NCBI GenBank assembly: GCA_963823665.1
Contig: CAWGMQ010000003.1
Span: 1,696,001 to 1,760,000, forward strand
Reading direction: 5' to 3'
Source: an uncultured Planctomycetota bacterium
Lineage (GTDB): Bacteria; Planctomycetota; Planctomycetia; Isosphaerales; Isosphaeraceae
Length of the DNA stretch: 64,000 nucleotides
Part shown: piece by piece, positions 7,411 through 21,129 of the stretch
Layout: each line of letters starts with the position of its first letter
Position numbering within the stretch: the stretch's first letter is position 1
Made by a program: the position numbers and the translations under genes
The notes under the pieces: generated by a model
Databases searched by the model: none
What the model was told of the DNA's origin: nothing
What the model saw: only the letters and a program-made list of their open reading frames with translations

Positions 7411-7790
7411 AGATTGCTGGGGATTCGTGATGGATTGTTCGTTGTTCGCGCTGCGACGATGCCACGTGATTTTCGAACTGCGTTCTTCAGACAACAGGAT
7501 AAGCGACGCTCCCGCTCAAGGGAAGCCGACATACTTCCAGCCGGAAGGCGTCCTGGCGGTGAACTTCCTGAGCGGCAAATCCCCCCTCTCGCGCTTTCAG
7601 AACATACTGCGGCCGGCAAAGCCTTCATGAACTCTTCATGGCGATGCAATCGCTGATCGAGCACGTCTCGACGCGCTGGTTTCTTGCGTTACTGGGTTTA
7701 GACGGCAAACAATTGTCACTCGGAAGAGCCAGCGCCGACCGCGAAAATTCCGAACACCCACCGAAATCTTGGCCCCAATCGAGGTGATTG

Positions 7791-9011
7791 ATGCGAAAGC
7801 ATGTCTTGTTTGTCATTTCGCCGGCAGTGTTCGTGAGCGTTGCATCGCTCGCCACCTCATTCGTCGCTGCGCAGGAAACGCCGTCGCCTGCCTTGCTCGT
7901 CCTGCATAAGGGCGAGAACGCGATGGCGATCATCGACCCGCAAACCGGGAAGATCTTCGGTCATGTGCCCACCGGGCAAGATCCGCACGAATTGGCGGTT
8001 TCCAGCGACGGCAAACTCGCTTTCGCCAGCAATTACGCGGGTCCAGGACCGCGCGGCGGCAATACGCTGTCCGTCATCGACATCGCGGCGCGGAAGGAGC
8101 TGCACCGAGTTGATCTCGGTCCGCTCAGCCGCCCGCACGGGCTGTGGTTTTCCGACGGCAAGCTGTACTTCACCGCCGAGGGAAGCATGGCCATCGCGCG
8201 CTACGACCCGCAGAGTAACAAGATCGATTGGCTGCTCGGGTTGGGTCAAGATCGCACGCACATGATCCTGGTCAGCAAGGACCAGAAGACGATTTTCACC
8301 TCGAATGTGAGCTCAAACACGATCAGCATCATTGAGCGCGGAACCTTCGGACGACCCGGCGGACCGGGTGGACCAGGCGGACCTCCTCCAGGCGGCCCGG
8401 GTGGACCCCCACCTGACCGTGCGGGCGGACCTCCTCCCGATGGACCAGGTGGACCCCCTCCCGGCCGACCGGACGGCGGGCCTCCTCCAGGTGGACAGGG
8501 CGGGCCAGGTGGAAGGCAGGGTGGACGACCGCCCGGGGGACCAGGCGGACCGGGTTGGAAGCAGACGGTTATCCCGGTGGGGAGGGGTCCCGAGGGCTTC
8601 GACCTCTCGCCGGACGGAAAGGAGATTTGGGCAGCACATTCGGGCGACGGACAAATCTCGGTCATCGACGTCGCCACCAAGAAGGTCGTACAGACGATCG
8701 ATGCCGGCGCGACCCGTGCCAACCGCCTGAAATTCACACCGGATGGAAAACTGGTGATCGTCTCTGAGCTAGGCGGTGGTGGGGGCGGTCTGGTCTTTCT
8801 CGACGCCGGCACGCGATCCATAAAGCAGCGCCTGAGGCTCGGGGGCGCCAGCGGAATCCTGATTCCGCCCGACGGATCTCGCGCCTATGTCGCGCTCACC
8901 GGCGCGAACGCCGTCGCAGTGATCGACCTCAAGGAGCTCAAAGAGATCGACCGCCTGAAGACCGGCTCCGGTCCCGACGGGATGGCCTGGCTGCCTGCGA
9001 AGGCACCATAA
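7791..9011 (+). CDS. Secreted YVTN/YncE-type beta-propeller protein with a Gly/Pro-rich insertion
   Basis: Signal peptide (FVAA-Q); PHELAVSSDG, NTLSVID, PEGFDLSPDG, GPDGMAW blades; GP-rich loop at about 8350-8555. Confidence 0.85.
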   Translation: MRKHVLFVISPAVFVSVASLATSFVAAQETPSPALLVLHKGENAMAIIDPQTGKIFGHVPTGQDPHELAVSSDGKLAFASNYAGPGPRGGNTLSVIDIAARKELHRVDLGPLSRPHGLWFSDGKLYFTAEGSMAIARYDPQSNKIDWLLGLGQDRTHMILVSKDQKTIFTSNVSSNTISIIERGTFGRPGGPGGPGGPPPGGPGGPPPDRAGGPPPDGPGGPPPGRPDGGPPPGGQGGPGGRQGGRPPGGPGGPGWKQTVIPVGRGPEGFDLSPDGKEIWAAHSGDGQISVIDVATKKVVQTIDAGATRANRLKFTPDGKLVIVSELGGGGGGLVFLDAGTRSIKQRLRLGGASGILIPPDGSRAYVALTGANAVAVIDLKELKEIDRLKTGSGPDGMAWLPAKAP

Positions 9012-9131
9012 GCCGGAGAATGCGCGGTTGCAGCGGTCAGACCCAGGTCGGAAAATCGCTCTTTAGCAAATAGGGTCTCCAGAGCTTCCGACCTGAAGCC
9101 GCTCGGCACCGACCGAGTTGTGATTGCAACC

Positions 9132-11717
9132 ATGATGTCATTCCTCGGCCCGGTTTTGGTCGCCGTGTTGGCAGCGGCCCAGGCACCCGCTCAAACGCCA
9201 CCTGATCGAAAGCTGTCCGGCGAAGTCGTCGACGGCGAAGGCAAGGCCGTGGCCGATGCCCGCGTGGTGTTCTACGTTCCGCCCGCAAACTTTCGGCGTG
9301 TTAGTCCCCTCGAGACGCAAGCGAGGACCGATCAAGCCGGCAAATTCAGCGTGGTTCGGCCTCGCGTAGAAGTACAGAGGCTCATCGGCGGCAACTTCCT
9401 GGCTTTTGCGCCGGGGCGGGCGATCGGGGCGGTGTCTTACATTGGGCAGCCGCGCCGATTGGTGCTGCAAAAGCCACGCACGCGAACGATCAAGATCGAA
9501 GGGCCCGACGGGCAGCCGGTCGCCGGTGCCCGGGTGGCCATCAGACTCCTCTCGGTCTTCCGCAGCACGATCGCCGAAGTTCCGCCGTCACTCGCGGATT
9601 CGCTCGCCACGAGCACCGGGCCGGATGGCACGACATCGATCGGCTACCTGGCAGAACGCGACCAGCTTGTTGCCGTCCGGATCACGGCCGATTCGATTGG
9701 GTCGCAAGACTTCCTGCTCGTGGAACGTCCCAGCCGCGCCTCCGAGCCACCCGTGATCACCATCAAGCTCAAGAGCACCGGCACAATTTCAGGCCGGCTC
9801 GTCGACGCGAACGCCCAGCCAGTCGCGGGACAAGTCGTCGAGGTTTGGACCAGAGGCGGGGGTACCCGGTTGCTGCCGAACCTGGTCGACTTCAAGGATG
9901 GCCCCCTCCGCACAGGTGCCGACGGCTCGTTCGAGACGCCGGCCAACCTCCAGAAAGGCACGCCCTACCGCGTGGCCGTCCGCGAGCCTGGCACAGATCC
10001 GATTTTTTCCGACTGGATCACGATCCAGGAGAAGTCGCATACGCTGCCGCTATGGGTGCAGCGACCGCTCCGGACCATCCGAGGACGCGTCGTCGACCGC
10101 CAGGGAAAGCCGGTCACGGGTGCCCGCCTTGTGCAGTCCGGCGATGGACCGGAGCGCACGGAGACGACGACCGACGCCGACGGCCGTTTTTCGCTGGCAG
10201 GGTTCCGCCAAGGCCCGGTGTTCATCTTCGTGCGCAGCGCCGGATTTCGATTCCACGGGCAACTGGTCAAGGCGACTGAAGTCGACGTGACGGCCGAGCT
10301 CACTCGCGAAGACGAGCGGCCGGCGCGGGAGATGAAGATGCTCCCGGATTTGATCCCGATCGACGAATCACGAGCGCTGGCGCGCCGGCTGCTCGAGCCC
10401 TGCTGGAAAGTCATAGCTGAAAAGTCTGACGACTTGACGAAAAACCGCTTCCTGTTGGATCTGCTGCCCGTCGACCCGGCCGGCGTGCTCCAGAAGCTGG
10501 AAGCCGTGAAATTCCAGTCGGAAACCCCGCGACTACTGCTGTTGCGGGAAATCGTGCTAGCGCTGGCCGAGCGTGATTTCGAGGAGGCCGCCACAGTAGC
10601 CGAGTCGATCCCGGACCCGGCGACGCGGTCCTGGGCCTTCGTTCGGTTGAGCGACCAGCTTCCAGATTCCGGCCGCGAGCGCAAGCTCGCGCTGCTCGAT
10701 CGAGCCTTGCAGCAAGCCAGAATCGCCAGCGACCAGGGCGATCGAGTAAATCAGATGGGCGAAGTCGCCGAGCGCTGGTATGAGCTGGGAAAGCCCGACA
10801 AGGCCAAAGCCCTCTTCGCCGAGGCCCTCAAAATCGCCACCGCGTTCACCGACAAGACCGATTTCAAGCGCGGCATGTTCGCCGCCAAGTTGGCATTAGT
10901 CGATCTTCCGGCGGCCGAGTTGATCGCCGGGGATTATAAGGGCGACCATTCCGAGGGTCGCATTCTCGCCAACATGGCCTTTCACCTCGCCGCGGAGAGG
11001 CCGGCTGATTGCGAGCGACTCTGGCAGCAGAGCCGGCTCAGCGTGATGGACACAGTACTCAGTTGGAAGCTGGCCACGGTCGATCCGTCACGTGCGCTTC
11101 GCGCGGTGAGCGCACGGTCAAAATCCACCCCTCAGCCCGAGCTCGAAATGTATATCGCCCTCGGAGCAAAGGCTCGCGACCAATCGATCTCTCGCCAGGC
11201 CGTACAAACCGCACTGCAAGGGCTCGACAAGCTCATGGAGGAACGGCCGGAGCGCTATGGGCTGGTCGCCGGACGTTTGTTGTGGCTGGTCGAACAGATC
11301 GACCCCACGATGCTGCCCGAGGTCTTTTGGCGCCAGCTCGCGGGCCGCTCACCTTACGGCAACCCGCGCGCTGATCACGCAGACGGTCCGACTGTCCGGG
11401 TCGCGGAGCTCGCCGTGTACGATCGTGAAGTCGCCGCGGCGCTGTTCCAGCCCACGCTCGCCCGCATGGAGCAGACCGATCCAACCGAGCTGGTCTCCTG
11501 GAGCTACGAGTTCATGTGCTGGTCGCTCATCGACCCCCGCGCCGCGGTTGCGCGGCTCGAGAAGATTCCTGTGCCGCAGGTGCCGGATTATCGGAAAGGA
11601 AACATCGCCGCGCGCCTGGCCGTCGCCCGTTTGCTCGCCCGCTCTAGCAAAGAACGCTGGCGCAATGAACGCGCTGACGAGCGCGAGGTCATCTTCGGCG
11701 GCAAACGAGGGTTTTAG
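9132..11717 (+). CDS. Secreted paralogue A1: carboxypeptidase-regulatory/transthyretin-like beta-sandwich repeats plus C-terminal helical (TPR-like) region
   Basis: Intact ORF; signal peptide; repeated GxVVDxxGxPVxxAxV...TDxxGxF units; conserved WSLIDPRAAV near the C-terminus. Confidence 0.85.
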   Translation: MMSFLGPVLVAVLAAAQAPAQTPPDRKLSGEVVDGEGKAVADARVVFYVPPANFRRVSPLETQARTDQAGKFSVVRPRVEVQRLIGGNFLAFAPGRAIGAVSYIGQPRRLVLQKPRTRTIKIEGPDGQPVAGARVAIRLLSVFRSTIAEVPPSLADSLATSTGPDGTTSIGYLAERDQLVAVRITADSIGSQDFLLVERPSRASEPPVITIKLKSTGTISGRLVDANAQPVAGQVVEVWTRGGGTRLLPNLVDFKDGPLRTGADGSFETPANLQKGTPYRVAVREPGTDPIFSDWITIQEKSHTLPLWVQRPLRTIRGRVVDRQGKPVTGARLVQSGDGPERTETTTDADGRFSLAGFRQGPVFIFVRSAGFRFHGQLVKATEVDVTAELTREDERPAREMKMLPDLIPIDESRALARRLLEPCWKVIAEKSDDLTKNRFLLDLLPVDPAGVLQKLEAVKFQSETPRLLLLREIVLALAERDFEEAATVAESIPDPATRSWAFVRLSDQLPDSGRERKLALLDRALQQARIASDQGDRVNQMGEVAERWYELGKPDKAKALFAEALKIATAFTDKTDFKRGMFAAKLALVDLPAAELIAGDYKGDHSEGRILANMAFHLAAERPADCERLWQQSRLSVMDTVLSWKLATVDPSRALRAVSARSKSTPQPELEMYIALGAKARDQSISRQAVQTALQGLDKLMEERPERYGLVAGRLLWLVEQIDPTMLPEVFWRQLAGRSPYGNPRADHADGPTVRVAELAVYDREVAAALFQPTLARMEQTDPTELVSWSYEFMCWSLIDPRAAVARLEKIPVPQVPDYRKGNIAARLAVARLLARSSKERWRNERADEREVIFGGKRGF

Positions 11718-11774
11718 ACTCGACGAAATGCCATCATCCTTTTCGGGCATCCGCCACAAGTAACGAGTTCACAC

Positions 11775-14353
11775 GTGACCACTCTCCCACTTTCGATGCT
11801 TCTCCTGGCTTTGATTGCTCAAACCCGGCCCGCCCCACGGCCGGCGCGGGGCAACGTCGTGGATGGCGATGACAAACCCGTCGCAAACGCGCGGGTCGTG
11901 CTCTATGCCCCGCCCGTGGCTTACTTGAAAGGCGATCCCGTCGAGGTCAAAGCCAAGACCAATGCCGACGGCCAGTTCAGCCTGGTCATTCCTCCCCTGG
12001 AACGGGCCGTGGTCAACGGCATCAGTTTCGTAGCTTATGCACCCGGACTGGCAATCGGCGCCACGTCGATCCTTCGCGGTGCTCACATCGTGCTGCAAGC
12101 TCCACGTCCTCGATTCGTGAAAGTCGAAGGACCGGACGGCGAGCCCATCGCCGGCGCACGGGTGGCACTCCGAGTTCTCTACGCCTTTGGCGGCACGCAG
12201 GCCGAGATTCCCCAATCACTCGCCGATCCTCTGGCAACCACCACCGGCCCCGACGGCATGACATCGATCGGGTACCTCGCGCCCCGGGACCTGCTCGTCG
12301 CCGTCCGGATCACGGCAGATTCCATCGGCTCGCAGGACTTCGTGCTCGTCGAACGGCCAGGCCGCGGCTCCGAGCCGCCCGTGATCACCGTCAAGCTCAA
12401 GAACGGCTATCCGATCTCCGGTCGACTCGTCGACGAAAATGCCCACCCCGTGCCCGACCAGGTGGTCGAAGTCTGGTCGCGTGGCAACGGAAGCTGGCTC
12501 AAAGCAAATCAGGTCGGATTCAAGGACGGCCCGCCAAGAACTAACGCGGACGGCTCTTTCCACATACCGCCAAATCTTCAGCAAGGCTCAGCCTACCGCA
12601 TAGCGATTTGCGCACCGGGCAAAGACCCGATCTTTTCCGCCTGGATCACAATTCAGGACAAAGCACACACCTTGCCTCTGCTGGTGCAGCGATCGTTGCG
12701 GACCGTCCGCGGCCAGGTGGTCGACCGACAAGGGAATCCGGTCGCAGGCGCCCGGGTTTTCCAGTCGGGCGACGGCCCCGATCGCACCGAAACCACAACC
12801 GCCGCGGACGGCCATTTCTCCCTGGGCGGGTTCCGGCCGGGCCCTGTGTTCCTCCTCGTCCGCAAAGATGGATTCCGGTTACACGGCCAGTTGATCAAGG
12901 CCACCGACGTGAATGTCGCGGCCGAATTGACCCGCGAGAGCGAGCCTCCGTCACGGCCGATGAAGACGCTCCCCGACGTGATCACCATCGACGAATCGCG
13001 GGCGCTCGCACGGCGTTTGCTCGAGCCCTGCTGGAAAGTTCTGGAGGGAGCCGAAGACCCGAAGAAAGGCCGCTTCCTCGAAGCCCTTGTGCCAGCCGAC
13101 CCTGCGGGCGTACTCGACAAATTGGCCACGCTGAAATTCACGAATGAATCCTGGCGCTTCCTTCTCTTGCAAGAAATCGTGCTCGCGCTGGCCGAGCGTG
13201 ACCAGGAAGAAGCCGCGTCCGTCGCCGAATCGATCCCGGACCCGGCCACCAGATCGCTCGCGCTGGCCGAGTTGTCCGATCGCCTCCCAGAGCCACAGCG
13301 CGATCGCAGGCTGGCGCTGCTTGATCGCGCGTTGCAGCAAGCCAGAATCACTGCCCACCAAACTGATCGATTGGCTCGGCTGGGCGACGTGGCCCTCCGC
13401 TTGAGCGAGCTGGGACAATTGGACAAAGCCAAGGCTCTGTTCGCCGAGGGCTTGACGATCGCCACGCCGCTCACAGGCAAGACCGATTTCAAGCGCGGCA
13501 TCTTCGCCGCCAGGCTGGCGCTCGTTGACCTCCCCGCGGCCGAGAAAATGGTCCGTGACTTCAAGGGCGACCGCAGTGAGGCCCGTGTAGTGGACAACAT
13601 GGCCTTCGTGCTGGCTCAATCGCGGCCTGACGATGCCGAGCGGTTGTGGTGTCAGATTGCGAGAAGCGGGCGGTCACCAGCCATCATGGACGGGATCGTC
13701 GGTTGGAAGCTCGCGGGAGTCGACCCGCCTCGCGCACTACGGGTCCTCGACACGTTCCGGAAAACCGGCTACGGCCCCGCGGCCTATTTCTACCTCGCCC
13801 TGGGCGCTGCGCTCGCGACGAATCCATCTCTCGTCAAGCGTTTCAGACCGGCTTGCACGGTCTCGACCAGATGATCGAAGAACGTCCGGAGAGCTACCCG
13901 TTTGAGGCCTTAACATTGTTGCCGGTGGTCGAGGCCACGGACCCGGCGCTCGTGCCCGAGGTCCTCTGGCGCCACGTCGCGTCGCGCCTGCCATATGGAA
14001 ACCCGCGAGCACTTCTATCAGAAACATCCTCACTGCAAATCGCCGAGATTGCGTACTTTGACCGACAAGTGGCCGCGGCTCTCCTGGAGCCCACGCTCGT
14101 ACGCATGGAACAAGCAAGTCCAGATGATCTGGCTCACTGGCCCACCGAGTTCGTGGCGTGGTCGCTCATCGACCCCCGCGCCGCGTTCGACCGGCTCGAC
14201 AAGATCCCGGTCGCTCACGACACCGACATCAACTGCGGCAGCAACGCCGCTCGAATCGCCGTCGGCGCTTCCCTCGCGCGATCCCGTCTGGAGCGCTGGC
14301 GTGCCAAACACGACGAGCGAGAAATCATTTTTAGTGGAAAGCGGAACTCTTAA
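11775..14353 (+). CDS. Secreted paralogue A2 (frameshift near 13810)
   Basis: Colinear with A1 (AVRITADSIGSQDF, DESRALARRLLEPCWKV, KTDFKRG). Joins ORFs 11775..13874 and 13646..14353 where A1 reads GAKARDQSISRQA. Confidence 0.85.
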
Positions 14354-14395
14354 GAATGCCCGGGCGACAATAATCTCGGAGGTTTCACTTCACTG

Positions 14396-15837
14396 ATGAA
14401 ATTGAACACAGCCGCATTCGCCCTGGCCCTGGCGCTGGTTCATCCTGCTTTTGATGCCCAAGCCCAAGCCGTCTCTGCTTCCCAGCCAGGCTGGCGCTAT
14501 GTTCTGCCCGCCCCCGGCGACCCGTTCGATCATGCTCCGTTCCGCGCCTTGGTCTTGACCCGAGAGAAGCCCGAGGAACTCGTCGAGAAAGCAGCCTATC
14601 GAGGCGAGAAATCCCGCCGCCGCTACGCACGCATCCGGTACGGCAGTCCCAGCTCGATCAGGGTGAGCATCGTGCTCGACGAGACGGTAAACGGAGAGGT
14701 CGACCTTTACGCCGATGCCGACCGCAACCTCCGCATCGACGACCGAGACCGCGTCAGCGCCCCGCCGGATCTACTGATCGAAGCGCACGGATTTGGCGGC
14801 TTCCCCTCGACGTGGCCGTCATCGAGAACGAGACCGTGCGACCCTTTCCGCGCGCGGTCGTGTTCCGCCTGGGCGCTAGCGGGCAAACGCTCGGTTATGC
14901 CACGGCAGGATACCTGGAGGGAACCGTCGTTGTGCGGTCCCACGAAGATGATAACGACAAACACAAACAGAACCGTGTCCTGGCCGCGCGGCGCGTCGAC
15001 GGCGACGGCAACGGGTTCCTCGCCGACATGCAGGACCGCCTGTACCTCGACCTCGATGGCGATGGGCGTTTTGATCCCGGCGTCGAACAATTCCTCTTCT
15101 CCACCGTGCTGAACCTCCAGGGCGCACGCTATATCGTCCGTTCCGACGAGCTGGGAAACCGGCTTGCGATCGATCCGCTCGAGGGCACGGGCACTCTCCG
15201 CCTGGCGCTTCAACAAAACGGGCCCTCGCCCGCTCCCAAGGTCCTCGAGATGCACGCGACGGCGATCGGCCGCGACGGCTCGGTGTTTGCCTTGTCGGGC
15301 AGCGAGCCAGCGGTCGTACCCGCCGGTGAGTATCGCCTTGGAAACCTGACCGTCTCGCTCGAGCACGCCAAGAGTGGTGAGGCGTGGACGTTCGTCTTCT
15401 CCGACGGCCTTTGGAGTCGCGGGCCCCGCTGGTACAAGGTCGACAAGGATGCCGCGGTCACGATCGACCCGGTCGGTAAGCCGAGTTTCGAGCTCGTGCG
15501 ATTCGATTCCAACGCGACAGCCACGCCCGGCGGGGACGTCGTCGTCCGCCCCGCCCTTTACACCGGCGACGGGCTGCTGATCATCGTCGGCTACTGCGGA
15601 AAGCCGGTGTCGCCCGCAACCCAGGAGCTTCTGGCCGCCCAGGTGAACTTGCTGAAAACCGACGGCCAGACGATGGCCACTGCCCACTCCGGCTTCTCCT
15701 GAGGCACTTTCTGCCAGGCCTCGGTTCGAGTGCCTTCGTCGCAGCCAACGGGGCCTGTCACGATCACCGCCGATTTCGACTCCGGCCCCCTCGCCGGGAC
15801 GTTGCACGCGACCACGACGGTGAACGTGACACCGTAG
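14396..15837 (+). CDS. Secreted protein with Dx[DN]xDG-type Ca-binding motifs; probable selenoprotein with in-frame UGA at 15700-15702 (UxxxC); frameshift near 14768
   Basis: Signal peptide MKLNTAAFALALALVHPAFDAQA; DGDGNG and DLDGDG motifs. After TGA the frame continues GTFCQASVRVPSSQPTGPVTITADFDSGPLAGTLHATTTVNVTP-TAG(15835-15837). A CDS to 15702 is well supported; the extension is inferred. Confidence 0.7.
15701..15736 (+). promoter_or_regulatory. Candidate bacterial SECIS hairpin directly at the UGA
   Basis: GAGGCACUU(15701-09) pairs with GAGUGCCUU(15728-36); upper stem GCCA/U(c)GGU closes the apical loop GGCC (15717-20). Confidence 0.55.
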
Positions 15838-15850
15838 AGAGCGATCCCGT

Positions 15851-15873
15851 GTAGCAGGCACACTCCGTGTGCC
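15851..15873. repeat. GTAG-type REP-like palindrome
   Basis: GTAG-CA-GGCACAC-tcc-GTGTGCC, 13 nt after TAG 15837. Confidence 0.65.
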
Positions 15874-15907
15874 GCCCGCTCACCCAAGTATCAAGGAGAT
15901 TTGAGGC

Positions 15908-18513
15908 ATGACGGCGCTACTCGGCCCCCTGCTCTCCGCGCTCTTTCTGATCCAGGCCCAGACCCATCGCACAGTTGCCGGAACCGTCATTGACAAAGAA
16001 GGCAAACCGATTGCGGGTGCCACAGTCGAAATGGCGCCACAGGCCAATCCCTATCTCCCGGGTGAGCCGGCCCGAGCCCAAGCAGCCGTCAAGGCTTTGA
16101 GCGACAGCAACGGTCGGTTCGAGCTCAGAATCCCGCCGGGCCGAATCTTCACGACCCAACTCCGTCTTTGGGCTCATCAACCGGGGCGAGCCGTCGCCAC
16201 TGAGCAGTTGCTGAACGTGAACGAGATTGGGAAGCCTCCTCAAATCGTGCTGTGGAAACCCGAGCCGCGCACCGTGAAAGTCGAGGGGCCCGACGGTAAA
16301 CCTGTCGTTGGCGCGCGGGTTGAACCCCGGTCGATCTCCTTTCCCGGCGGACCTGCCTTTGGTCGCATTCCCGCGTCCCTGGCCTCGCGACTGGCAGTGA
16401 CCACCGGACCGGACGGAACCGCAACGGTTGCGTACCTCGCCCGCCAGGACCGCCTCGTGGCGCGCGACTCACCGTCGATGCGATTGCTGAGCAGGACCTG
16501 CCGGTGGCGGAGGAAATGCGCAACGGCCCGCTCGGTCCCACCGTCGTGATCAAGCTCAAGAAGACGAGCCGGCTTTCCGGGCGGATTTTAGACGACGCAG
16601 GGAAGGGCGCGGCCGGCCAAACGGTCGACGTCTGGTGCCGAGTCAACGACGGCATATTCGCTTCCGGGTCGGTCACCTTCAAGAACGGTCCGGTGCGAAC
16701 GGCCGCGGATGGGTCGTTTCAGACCCCGGATAACCTCATGATAGGCTCATCCTATCGCTTGGTGGTCCGCGAGCCGGGTAGGGAGCCGATCATCTCCGAT
16801 TGGATCGGAATCACCGAACAGCCCGTGACAGTCGCTCCGCTCAAACGGCGGGCGGTTCATTCGGTCATCGGCCGGGTGATCGACCGGCAAGGGAAACCCG
16901 TCGCCAACGTCGAAGTCTTCCAATCGTTCAACGGGCCCGCCCAGACCCTCCGCACGGATGGCGACGGCGGCTTCGCGCTGGAGGGCTTGCCTCTTGACAC
17001 GGTGTTCCTGTTTGCACGGGGCGAAGGATTCCGGTTCCACGGTCAAATGCTCAAGCCGGGAGATGACGAGGTCACGGTCGTGCTGACGCGCAGCACCGAG
17101 CACCCGCAGCGCGAGTTAAGGAAGCTGCCCGACCCGATCCCGCTTGACGAGTCGCGCGCAATGGCCCGCCGGATCATGGAGCGGTGGTGGAAAGCGGCCG
17201 TCGATAAAGGCGACGAAAACGGCAAGTTCTTCGCCGTCCAGTTCCTCATCCCGGCCGATCCGGTCGGCGCTTTGCAGAAGATCGGTGCCGTCAAGTTTGC
17301 GACCGAGCAGTCGCGGTCCCGTCTTCAGAGCCTGGCAGCCCGCTCGCTGGCCCGGACCAATTTCGACGAGGGCGAGACAGTCGCCGAGTCGATCGTTGAC
17401 CCCGGCATTCGCGCGCGGAACTCTGGCACACCTGGCCGATGTTGCTGCCAGAGAGCGCAAAAGCAGCGCAAGCTGGCGATTGTCGAACAAGCGGCGGTCT
17501 CTGCCAAGGCGACGAGCACGCCTTCGGACCACGTGTCTGCGCTGGGCGAGGTGGCAGGGCGGTTGCTCGATCTGGGAAAGATGGATGAAGCCAAGACGCT
17601 CTTCGCGGAGGGCCTTCGCAATGCGAGGGAGTTCAAAGACGAGACGTTGCGGCGCAGGTCGTTCGCCGGGCTCCTGGCGCTGGTGGACCTGCCGGGGGCA
17701 ATAGAGCTGGCCAAGCAGGCCGGTGACGGGCGCTACGCGGCTGCCGCTCTCCACAGCATCGCCTTCGGCCTGGCCTGGGATAAACCGGCCCAAGCGGAGC
17801 AATTCTTGAAGGAATACCCGCCGGGAAAGGGCGCGGGTTGGCTGACTCCGAAGGTCACCTGGAAGGTCGCAACGCTCGATCCCAAGCGTGCCCGGCAGCT
17901 CGTTGACACCCGCCGCGATCAGCCAAATTACTTCGAGCACGAGTTTTGCCTGGCCCTGGGGGCGAAGGGGCGAGACGAGACAATTTCAAGGGCGGCAATC
18001 CAGGCCGGACTGCAAGCGCTCGATCTGACCCTCAAAAAACGGCCGCTCGTGCTGACCCGATCCGGTGGACCGTCACTGGCGATCATCGAAGCGATCGACC
18101 CGGCTCTGGTTGACGAGGTGATGTGGATCGCAATCGCGGCCCTGCCGCCCTCCGCGCGGGATATGCAGTTGAATGTGCCCGGCCCTGTTGTTGCACCGAG
18201 TGCCTGGTACGACCGCGATGTGGCCGCTGCGCTGCTTGCGCCGCGAGTACGGCGCATCGAGCAGGCTGCCGACCCCGCGCTCGTCAATGCGGAGCGGGTG
18301 CTCGACGTCTGGGCGCTGATCGACCCCCGCGCCGCGGTCGCCTGGCTCGAGAGAGCCCCGATGACCAGCACCAACCCCAACGACAACTTCGGGTGGATCT
18401 ATGTCGTCGAGAAGCTCTCCCTGGACAGAGACGAGCGCTGGCGAAAGACTTTTCTCGACTGGGCACCCGTCTTCAACCCGGCCAATCGCGATGTCATGTT
18501 CGACCGTTTCTGA
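15908..18513 (+). CDS. Secreted paralogue B1 (frameshift near 16465; compensating pair near 17415-17450)
   Basis: AAGGAG RBS; signal peptide; same repeat architecture; DESRAMARRIMERWW; WALIDPRAAV; ends NRDVMFDRF. Confidence 0.85.
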
Positions 18514-18527
18514 AGGAGTGCTTCCAC

Positions 18528-21129
18528 ATGCTGGCCTTGGCTGCCCCCCTGCTCTCTGCCATCCTGCTGGCGCAGCCCGTGCCGGAAGGCAAAGTCGCCG
18601 GCACCGTCGTTGACGAGCAGGCCAAACCAGTCGCCGGTGTCCAGGTCGTGCTGTACGCGCCGCCAATCGGCAACTTCAAGGGCGATCCGGTCGAGGCAAG
18701 ATCCCAGACCGACCCAGCCGGCCGATTCGATTTCACGGCGCCGCCGCTGGGCCGAATCTACCGGCGCGGAGTCCACATCTGCGCATTCAAAGCGGGATTC
18801 GCCATCGCTGCGGTCGAGTTTCAGCTCAACAAACCGCACCAGATCGTGCTCCGCAAACCCGAGACTCGCCGCGTGCGGGTCGAAGGGCCCGACGGCAAAC
18901 CGGTCGCGGGCGCACGCATCGAAGCCGCGTCTGATCTCGTTCTCAGGCGGAACGGGCACCGCCGATATCCCGGCCTCGCTAGCCTCTCCTCTGGCCGCGA
19001 CCACCGGAGCCGACGGCACCGCGACCCTCGCTTTCCTCCGCGATCGCGATCGTCTCGTGGCAGCACGCTTGAGAGCGGACCCAGTCGGCGAGCAAGACCT
19101 GCCCGTTGCGGAGGTAACCGCGGCAGGTAAAGCCCCATCCACCTTCGAGATCAAGCTCAAGAAGACCGGCCGGCTCACGGGCCGTATCGTTGACCTCACC
19201 GGCCGCGGTGTCGCCGGTCAAGCCGTCGAGATCTGGTCCAGAGGTGCCTCCGGCGGGTTCATTCCCAATCCAGTCGGCTTCACTAACGGTCCGCCCAGAA
19301 CGGGATCCGACGGCGCCTTCCAGACACCTGCAAATCTCCTGATCGGCTCATCCTACCGGGTCGTCATTCGCGAGCCCGGCAACGAGCCGATCATCTCCGA
19401 TTTCTTCCCGGTCACCGAGGATTCCGTCGCGATTCCCACCCTCGAGCTGCGACCACTGCGCACCGTTTCCGGCCGGGTGGTCGACCGGCAGGGTAATCCC
19501 GTTCCGGACGTCGAAGTCTTCCAATCGGGCGATGGTCCCAAGCGAACGTCTGTCCGGACCGACGGCTCGGGTCGCTTCGCGCTCGGAGGGTTCCCGATCG
19601 GAACCGCCTACGTCTTTGCTCGCGGCGAGGGCTTCCGATTCCACGGCAAGCTGCTCAAGCCAGGCGAAAAGGAGGTTCACGGTCGAGCTCACGCGGTCTA
19701 ACGAGCGACCCGCACTCGGGCTGACCAAGCTCCCCGACCCGATCCCGATCGAAGAATCACGCGCCATGGCCCGCCGGATCATGGAGCGGTGGTGGAACGC
19801 CGCCGTCGAAAAAAGAGACGAAGGCGGCAAGTTCTTCGTCATTCAATTTCTCCTGCCGGCCGACCCCCTCGGCGCGATGCAGAAGATGAGTGCCGTCAAG
19901 TTCTCTTCGGAGAAGCTGCGCGGAGCCGACTTCACAGCCTCGTGGCCCGCGCCGTGGCCCGCACGGATTTCGAGGAAGGCGAGACCCTGGCCGAGTCGAT
20001 CGCCGACCCGGGCATCCGCGCCGGAACGCTCGCACACCTTGCCGACTTGCTCCCCTCGCGCGAGAAACAACGAAAGCTCGCGATCCTCGAGCGTGCCCTG
20101 ATCCAGGCCAGGGCGACGAACAGGCCGAATACCCGCGTGTACCAGTCCGGCGAGGTTGCCGGCCGTCTGCTCGAGCTCGGCGAGACGTCAAAAGCCCGCG
20201 CCCTCTTCGCCGAGGCACTTGCACAAGCAAAGCAGTCGAAGGATGTGTCGTTCGGACGACGAGCCTTCACCGCGATGCTCGCGCGCATCGACCCGGCCGG
20301 AGCGATCGAGATGGCCAAGCAGGTTGCCGACGACCAGCTCTACGGGCCGCTCGCGCTCTCAAGCGTCGCGTTCGGCCTGCCGTGGGACAAGCCGGCCGAG
20401 GCCGATCGGTTCCTTAGCCTTTATCCCCCTGACAAGCCGCCGAGCTGGCTCGAGCCCGTGATCGCCTGGAAGATCGCAACGCTCGATCCCGCCCGTGCGC
20501 GGAAACTGATCGAATCCCAGCGTGGCGAGCCCGATTATGTGCAGCACGCTTTTTGCGTGGCCCTGGGAGCGAAGGGGCGAGACGAGCCCACCATGAACGC
20601 CGCCGTTCTCGGCGGGTTTGCAAGATCTCGATCGCGTGCTCGACAAGGAACCGCACATGCTGATGCAATACGGCGGGGCGGTACTGGCGATCGCCGAAGC
20701 CATCGACCCCGCCCTTGTGCCGGAGGTGATGTGGCGCCTGGTCTCCGCCCGGAACTTCCCCGGCAATCCGCGGGTCGTCGGGCGCCTATTCTCCGATGCC
20801 GCTCGTCGAGTGCATCGCCTGGTACGACCGGGCGCTTGCCGCCGCGCTCCTCGAGCCCACTCTGGCGCGCATGGACAAGATCAGCGATGCCGAGCTCGGT
20901 GGATTGGGACTGGGCATTCGAAACCTGGACCCTCATCGACCCCCGCGCCGCGGTCGCCCGACTTGAAAAGATCCCGATGCAGAGCACCAACCCGAACGAC
21001 AACCGGCTCTGGATCTACGTCGTCGAGAAGCTGGCCCTGGACCACGACGAGCGCTGGCGAAAGACCTTCAACCAGTGGGAACCCATCTTCAACCCCCACG
21101 TCCGCGATTTCATGCTTGATCGCTTCTGA
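18528..21129 (+). CDS. Secreted paralogue B2 (several frameshifts, near 18930, 19675, 19920 and 20610-20900)
   Basis: AAGGAG RBS, ATG 18528 MLALAAPLLSAILLAQ; pieces colinear with B1 (EESRAMARRIMERWW, STNPNDN, WIYVVEKL); ends VRDFMLDRF. Confidence 0.8.

Follow-up and report, generated by a model that had tools for sequence, protein, structure and literature searches.

Our comparison of homologues indicates that the in-frame UGA at position 15700 of the window (the whole 64,000-nt stretch of planctomycete DNA analysed here) is almost certainly a selenocysteine codon, lying near the end of a gene for an all-beta, apparently exported protein. We consider it very probable, bordering on sure, that this codon is decoded by the standard bacterial SelB/SECIS route, and the evidence for this comes from the codon column in homologues, a silent-site-constrained hairpin downstream of the codon and the selenocysteine machinery of the genomes that carry the gene.

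The gene and its in-frame UGA

The original prediction was of a hidden selenoprotein, in which an open reading frame stops at TGA 15700-15702 but stays open for 44 more codons up to a TAG ending at 15837. This layout is borne out on the sequence, which reads ATAHSGFS, then the TGA, then GTFCQASVRVP...VNVTP and TAG 15835-15837 (Table 1). At the same time, the open tail alone is weak evidence, because 44 or more open codons follow the TGA in 89 of 158 long TGA-ended frames of such GC-rich DNA (spurious frames included), and we rejected it as a stand-alone argument. Recoding, a weak case from the window alone, is settled by the comparative data.

In the window, the frame starting at ATG 14396 is broken by a one-base shift near 14759. 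This is most likely an assembly error, because an 88%-identical orthologue (L025) runs unbroken for 482 codons, its codon 436 being the corresponding TGA, and a public contig of depth 3.3 carries an extra base where the shift occurs. At codon 15700-15702 no TGC, TGG or other letter was seen in the public contigs that cover it. The contig that is identical over the UGA extends 15 letters on its left, with the bridging threshold set at 31, and a diverged public contig bridges the UGA with the codon unchanged. The genome of the window holds a second, frameshifted copy of the gene (L024/L101, G000:C6:1760500-1761700), which shares the TGA, the SECIS and the neighbour gene.

The prediction had also pointed to gene spacing, and here too our measurements agree: the genes of the cluster stand 57, 42, 70 and 14 nt apart (the 14-nt gap running from the upstream neighbour to the ATG of the next paralogue), and the 70-nt gap, counted from the TAG, would be 205 nt if TGA were the stop. 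The REP-like palindrome noted behind the TAG proved to be a genomic repeat that matches at least 46 places in this genome, on a scoring of 40 of 161 candidates. Public contigs cover it at high depth, and soil metagenome contigs contain it many times over.

Table 1. Features of the selenoprotein locus, in window coordinates.
Feature	Position	Strand	Remarks
Two paralogous large exported proteins (CarboxypepD_reg repeats, then helical repeats)	9120..14353	+	Upstream; second one frameshifted; conserved gene neighbour of the family
Selenoprotein gene	14396..15837	+	About 480 codons, predicted Sec at about 436; start resembling a signal peptide, three beta domains in the N-terminal part and an MG2-like one at the C-terminus
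Signal-peptide-like N-terminus	14396..14470	+	Basic start, hydrophobic stretch, AQA-type site; by eye, similar leaders in homologues
Two to three DxDxDG-like acidic loops (DADRN, DGDGNG, DLDGDG)	14700..15080	+	Putative Ca2+ sites
One-base frameshift	14755..14765	+	Near 14759; orthologue L025 intact, one public contig with an extra base behind 14759
In-frame UGA, almost certainly decoded as selenocysteine	15700..15702	+	Comparative codon data, Sec machinery in genome
44-codon read-through part	15703..15834	+	Last three MG2-like strands (model); conserved GTFCxASVRVP, FDSGPLAG
Cys of UxxxC motif	15712..15714	+	Cys in 44/44 TGA genome loci
Bacterial SECIS hairpin	15717..15734	+	6-bp stem, 3' bulged U, apical loop GGUUC 15723-15727
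REP-like high-copy palindrome	15849..15881	.	3' of the true stop
Two further paralogues of the same neighbour family	15908..21129	+	Downstream; frameshifted in the window

The codon column in homologues

When searched against sampled genomes, the read-through protein matched 34 of 401 genomes of the class and 8 of 401 genomes of a phylum sample, several of the latter weakly. We examined 51 loci, of which 45 could be placed at the codon column and six were matches too weak to place. TGA occupied the column in 44 of the placed loci and TGC in one, with TAA or TAG in none of the 45, and the Cys four residues on, which makes up the proposed UxxxC motif, was present in every one of the 44 TGA loci. 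A scan of metagenomes, using a pattern back-translated from the TGA consensus in which the codon and all silent sites were left free, yielded 62 matches (54 distinct loci), all with TGA; this pattern fixes the downstream residues, so it gives no measure of their conservation, and divergent Cys forms would escape it. Across the 98 distinct loci from genomes and metagenomes together, TGA is the sole stop codon found at the column, while the true stops vary (59 TGA, 18 TAG and 17 TAA, n=94). The tail is 39–55 codons long in 92 of 94 loci and conserved, with identity to the reference of 0.57 after the UGA versus 0.48 before it (35 loci), so that conservation lies on both sides of the stop, as recoding would have it.

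A database search of 1.84 billion representatives returned 490 clusters (at 50% identity) that match the protein at E ≤0.001. Among the best 150 of the 490 representatives, 111 end in GFx at the codon column and three continue with Cys, which confirms the suspicion that annotation pipelines would truncate the protein: database members of the family, named 'hypothetical protein', stop at the UGA, about 45–50 residues early. We identified five natural Cys forms (L054, P0027, P0033, P0055 and P0159), one at the genomic TGC locus and four from the databases, which are scattered on a FastTree tree (four changes, at least three of them forced). One of them, L054, is without the second Cys. Trp was never found at the codon column among the homologues.

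A SECIS hairpin with a covarying loop-closing pair

Downstream of the UGA lies the sequence GGC-CUC[GGUUC]GAG-U-GCC (15717-15734, -7.7 kcal/mol), which can fold into a small hairpin. Counting the U of the UGA as +1, it consists of G18-G19-C20, C21-U22-C23, a loop at 24–28, G29-A30-G31, a bulged U32 and G33-C34-C35, so that the element spans +18 to +35 and places the loop 20 nt beyond the UGA. The bacterial SECIS consensus, as given in the accessible part of PMC13188914, has a loop of 3–9 nt, a stem of 4–16 bp and a distance of 16–37 nt from the UGA, and also a G in the first two loop positions and a minimum free energy of -7.5 or lower. The window element falls within all of these (loop GGUUC, 6–7 bp, 20 nt, -7.7 kcal/mol). 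Its pairing holds in 95.6% of the cells of a 42-row alignment. A positive control came from the same genome, whose own FdhA gene (L214:1924, G000:C5), with an in-frame TGA, has the apex CCC-GGUCU-GGG and a loop 18 nt after the UGA.

The 6-bp stem itself shows little covariation and few compensatory changes, and its support therefore comes from constraint on synonymous sites. All 44 loci keep G18, in codons that span eight amino acids, and the silent sites of Ala GCC, Arg CGA and Val GTG are frozen in all 54 distinct metagenome loci; elsewhere in the same genes CGA and GTG make up 15% and 33% of usage. The apex is where covariation was seen. The bases at +24 and +27, each at a silent site, can pair with one another in 97 of the 98 distinct loci (G-C 54, C-G 26, G-U 15, A-U 2, and a single G-A), compared with a mean of 57.9 and a maximum of 72 under 10,000 shuffles; among control codon pairs, complementarity was seen in 31 of 61 for Ser-Val and in 342 of 772 of a wider set. 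When 86 of these loci were placed on a tree built without the hairpin codons, the C-G form required 12 changes, at least seven of the switches being forced by supported branches. On this comparative evidence, the SECIS apex is a nearly invariant GU closed by a covarying pair, formed by the first and fourth loop bases. At the sole Cys-coding genomic locus the hairpin is absent.

Energetically, the element is only modestly stable: taken alone, the 18 nt have a z of -2.0 against shuffles, and in the full context of the window sequence another fold is preferred over it. An Rfam scan of 15600-15950 gave no SECIS or other family match. A strict SECIS pattern found three matches in the genome versus none in the control, namely the window gene, its frameshifted paralogue and a gene reading RC-UGA-GMLHHGPVRVP, and a loose pattern did no better than its control (15 versus 11).

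The hairpin originally put forward was a different one, beginning at the UGA with a 9-bp lower stem and a GGCC loop. It is indeed the minimum-energy fold, but it does no better than shuffles (z -0.64, with 45 of 200 shuffles as good), pairs in 69% of alignment cells, compared with 95.6% for the conserved element, and has its loop 14 nt after the UGA, closer than the 16–37 nt of the consensus; we rejected it as the SECIS. Nor was the stability of any fold starting at the UGA significant against shuffles. The caveat attached to the prediction, that a loop at 14 nt sits nearer the codon than in fdhF, is lifted at the same time, because the conserved SECIS has its loop at 20 nt.

Selenocysteine machinery

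The prediction called for a search for the selenocysteine genes, and the genome of the window turned out to have selA, selB and selD above cut-offs together with a tRNA-Sec with anticodon TCA. Among the other carrier genomes, 34 of 35 have tRNA-Sec and the remaining one has selB. In the class sample, selA was matched in 29 of 32 carriers versus 218 of 401 genomes of the class overall, and the three carriers that gave no selA match (69–83% complete) all have selB. The co-occurrence is weaker than it looks, because carriers are related and belong to families in which Sec machinery is frequent (64 of 98 and 81 of 88 genomes), and we take it as consistent with recoding rather than decisive. The SelD of this genome (L019, G000:C4:2294119) has Cys, not Sec, at its active-site motif. 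Elsewhere in the genome, a molybdopterin-oxidoreductase-like match with one in-frame TGA (G000:C10:1189390-1189749) is possibly another selenoprotein.

Predicted fold and domains

An AlphaFold2 model was made for the 88%-identical orthologue, with Cys in place of Sec and 110 aligned sequences. It has a mean pLDDT of 93 and is nearly all beta, with one 6-residue helix, which fits the proposed secreted selenoprotein of non-thioredoxin fold. The residues after the UGA form three strands in the model (pLDDT 93–97) as part of a domain at 334–453, so the modelled read-through part completes a C-terminal MG2-like beta-sandwich, much as the Ig-like sandwich of the prediction was expected to be completed, and stopping at the UGA would leave the sandwich incomplete. 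Both the Sec and the Cys four residues on lie within one modelled loop between strands.

Domain 334–453 aligns with MG2 of alpha-2-macroglobulins and complement proteins with Z 9.2–9.8 and rmsd 2.2–2.4, the best match being Salmonella alpha-2-macroglobulin (Z 9.8, rmsd 2.2, 96 aligned residues; human alpha-2-macroglobulin, Z 9.2), and it scores as well against other Ig-like domains, with Z values of 9–10 being uninformative on function. One Cys homologue, 1 of the 110 members, matched PF01835 with E 3e-5 and 24.7 bits, against a cut-off of 32.8. The N-terminal part appears to comprise two units that contain DxDxDG-like loops, besides a sandwich of the CnaB/prealbumin type; a structure search with the N-terminal 333 residues gave middling matches at 234–333 (CnaB/prealbumin-like, Z 8.0) and 19–142 (tripeptidyl peptidase II insert, Z 7.0), and barely covered residues 143–233. 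Two or more DxDxDG-like motifs occur in 103 of 110 family members, D173 (numbered on the alignment's first row) is invariant and 19 of the 110 have weak Pfam matches to GEVED. The acidic loops may bind Ca2+, a proposal drawn entirely from these motifs, and the protein is presumably exported, given the signal-peptide-like start that can be seen by eye in most homologues.

Sequence searches of the PDB gave nothing below E 0.6, and Foldseek returned weak, scattered beta-sandwich matches only. Neither Pfam nor NCBIfam gave a match to a catalytic family. Within the Sec-bearing domain an additional upstream Cys is partly conserved (45 of 108 rows), and the family alignment has no further invariant Cys or His ligand.

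Gene neighbourhood

In 20 of 21 regions (one of them weakly), the family gene has within about 6 kb a gene for a large exported protein that combines CarboxypepD_reg repeats with helical repeats at its C-terminus; mostly the two adjoin directly on the same strand. CarboxypepD repeats are common in such genomes, and therefore the adjacency of this neighbour weighs more than its presence. In the window, four tandem paralogues of it surround the selenoprotein (9120-21129), three of them apparently frameshifted. No recurring metal-transport or metal-resistance gene was found among the ORFs of 20 neighbourhoods, part of which were scanned against Pfam. Two family members (P0135 and P0151) are fused behind an N-terminal BlaR1 M56 peptidase and end at the UGA column.

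Some further genes were seen nearby. Upstream of the cluster in the window, on the same strand, there is a YncE-like beta-propeller gene with a long Gly/Pro-rich insert (7788-9011). Redoxin/TlpA-like genes lie near two loci (L093:11243-12295 and L095:83-442; one recognised by Pfam, one by its CxxC motif), too infrequently for the status of a conserved partner.

A sister family with the partner Cys moved

We also found a sister family, which has RC-UGA (Cys-Sec) at the corresponding site, in the same domain and with the same SECIS register (L082:1501, at G000:C10:265064; L096:6892-13001; L118, L121, L124, L125, L127 and L140). It matches 25 of 201 genomes, and in one genome (G270) three tandem sister-type genes flank a member of the window family. 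The last domains of the two families align with their Sec columns in register (probability 86.7, E 4.4e-6), and the sister N-terminus has the first acidic-loop unit in common with the window family. Surveying 32 loci, we obtained 14 motif sites, with 20 loci yielding none with the pattern. The hairpin CCC-GGUNC-GGG stands at the same distance in all seven sister TGA loci and in at most one of seven TGY loci. The Sec site is constant while the partner Cys is at +4 in the window family and at -1 in the sister family.

Of ten sister-type frames scanned, four are fused to ECF-type sigma-70 domains and others to WD40 or CarboxypepD repeats. Among the four sigma fusions, one has a Cys-Cys pair and one lacks both Cys residues, and TGA was seen in none of them. 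A broader picture, which we regard as possible but doubtful, would be an uncatalogued superfamily of extracytoplasmic selenium modules in Planctomycetota, each an MG2-like sandwich with a fixed Sec, a partner Cys that has moved and a SECIS in register, found alone next to large repeat proteins or in fusions with WD40 propellers, BlaR1-type peptidases or ECF sigma factors, and perhaps acting as a surface sensor of redox state or selenium.

Proposed mechanism and alternative readings

Our explanation has four steps. SelB and tRNA(Sec) would bind the in-frame SECIS at +18 to +35, so that the UGA is decoded as Sec and translation goes on for 44 codons to the TAG at 15837. The read-through part would then complete the MG2-like sandwich with its final three strands, Sec and Cys lying together in the inter-strand loop of the model. 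The protein would be exported, with its acidic loops possibly binding Ca2+. Finally, the Sec-Cys pair could form an extracytoplasmic, redox-active selenol/thiol site that, cycling via a selenenylsulfide, would work with the adjacent CarboxypepD-repeat protein as a switch, a sensor or an exchange catalyst. We find the four-step explanation highly likely as a whole; its last step, an exposed, extracytoplasmic redox-active Sec-Cys pair working with the neighbouring repeat protein, we hold more loosely, at a little under an even chance. Selenium incorporation itself we infer from sequence comparison.

Two readings deny selenocysteine altogether. A genuine stop or a sequencing error at the UGA, with the tail as a chance extension or a separate small peptide, has next to no chance of being right in our view: the window assembly does have many frameshifts, chance open tails of 44 codons are common and databases end these proteins at the UGA, but a column where TGA is the only stop codon across 98 distinct loci, drawn from numerous genomes and metagenomes, together with contigs that agree at the codon and a conserved tail that has no start codon and is continuous in the five Cys homologues, argues strongly against it. 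Very improbable, too, is a UGA that a suppressor or near-cognate tRNA reads as another amino acid, such as Cys or Trp, with the hairpin merely stimulating read-through. The existence of Cys homologues and a modelled fold that tolerates Cys would be in keeping with this, yet Trp never appears at the column, TGA is the usual true stop of the very same genes (59 of 94), the tRNA found with a TCA anticodon is tRNA-Sec, and the hairpin fits both the SelB-type consensus and the FdhA apex and is lost when the codon becomes TGY.

With Sec inserted, the Sec-Cys bond could instead serve as a staple, neither catalytic nor sensing, that holds together or helps to fold a surface scaffold or adhesin, or, in a variant, Sec could tie folding of the last domain to selenium supply. 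The domains are all Ig-, CnaB- or MG2-like sandwiches of the kind typical of surface scaffolds, catalytic family matches are absent, the neighbour is likewise a repeat scaffold, and termination at the UGA would leave the sandwich incomplete. We nevertheless judge this staple, including its variant, rather unlikely, as Cys would suffice for a purely structural bond and yet Sec dominates, the Cys forms being few and scattered (at least three changes), and the partner Cys shifts between the sister families while the Sec site stays. More unlikely again, though well ahead of the readings that deny selenocysteine, is a soft-metal or metalloid site (Cu, Zn, Hg or Fe-S) formed by the UxxxC or CU pair on the exported protein. 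Known CU and CxxU selenoproteins include metal-handling families, as the accessible part of PMC13188914 lists them, and the partly conserved upstream Cys in the same domain could be a further ligand; against this stand the lack of any recurring metal gene in the 20 neighbourhoods and of any other invariant Cys or His. The redox reading is preferred because the partner Cys is constant and has moved from +4 to -1 around a fixed Sec, and because Sec dominates over Cys and related domains are fused to signalling proteins; we therefore commit to ranking it above the staple, and the staple above the metal site.

Comparison with known systems

Pfam has no family over cut-off for the window protein or the 110 members, and NCBIfam 20.0 gave no match. 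By name, motif and visible sequence, neither Table 1 of PMC13188914 (119 families, 2026), where no UxxxC motif is given either, nor Table S1 of deep-Sep (PMC12013277) shows such a family in its accessible form. The planctomycete candidates in the accessible text of PMC4807772 are other named families plus one unnamed hypothetical outside the comparison, and BSepDB (PMC13326102) covers previously reported families, as its accessible text has it. The accessible literature has no description of the family, the families of Haft and Tolstoy 2025 being compared only via Table 1 of PMC13188914. The family, its fold context and its motif thus appear to be new and the recoding mechanism ordinary; the supplements of Haft and Tolstoy 2025 and the BSepDB sequences may bear on novelty.

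If so, this adds a widespread planctomycete selenoprotein family whose fold context and motif spacing are absent from the accessible part of the 2026 catalogue (PMC13188914), and it places selenocysteine on an exported scaffold that does not look like an enzyme. The covarying loop would provide a precise, testable map of SelB recognition in planctomycetes, as well as a rule for annotation repair of the window and sister families.

Like the SelB/SECIS genes of the E. coli fdhF and FdhA type, the window gene combines an in-frame UGA with selA/B/C/D in the genome and with a small coding-region stem-loop, 16–37 nt downstream, whose loop opens with G and then U. It departs from fdhF and FdhA in encoding a protein that has no relation to formate dehydrogenase, in a loop that lies 20 rather than 18 nt from the UGA and in a bulge on the 3' side. 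With the thioredoxin-fold UxxC/CxxU selenoproteins, such as exported DsbG-like and TlpA-like proteins, the family shares a Sec with a conserved Cys nearby and, probably, redox chemistry, but the window motif U-G-T-F-C has three residues between Sec and Cys, and in the all-beta model it sits in an inter-strand loop instead of at a helix start. The DUF1573 fold is Ig-like. The DUF1573 selenoprotein (PF07610, UGC motif) is an entry in the accessible parts of the catalogue (PMC13188914) and of deep-Sep (PMC12013277), and resembles ours in being exported and of non-thioredoxin fold; it differs in motif, size and architecture, and PF07610 matches 0 of the 110 members at E ≤0.01. The Sec-bearing domain at 334–453 aligns with MG2 (PF01835) of alpha-2-macroglobulins and complement C3, C4 and C5, whereas the protein as a whole, at 480 residues, is without the remaining macroglobulin parts, falls under the Pfam cut-off and has a domain that Ig-like domains match equally well. 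Finally, selenoproteins that databases cut at the UGA have been described before, for example SaoL, in the accessible part of the preprint by Haft and Gwadz (10.1101/2022.07.06.499078). SaoL and other UGA-truncated selenoproteins suffer the same annotation failure as the family described here, in different folds, hosts and gene neighbourhoods.
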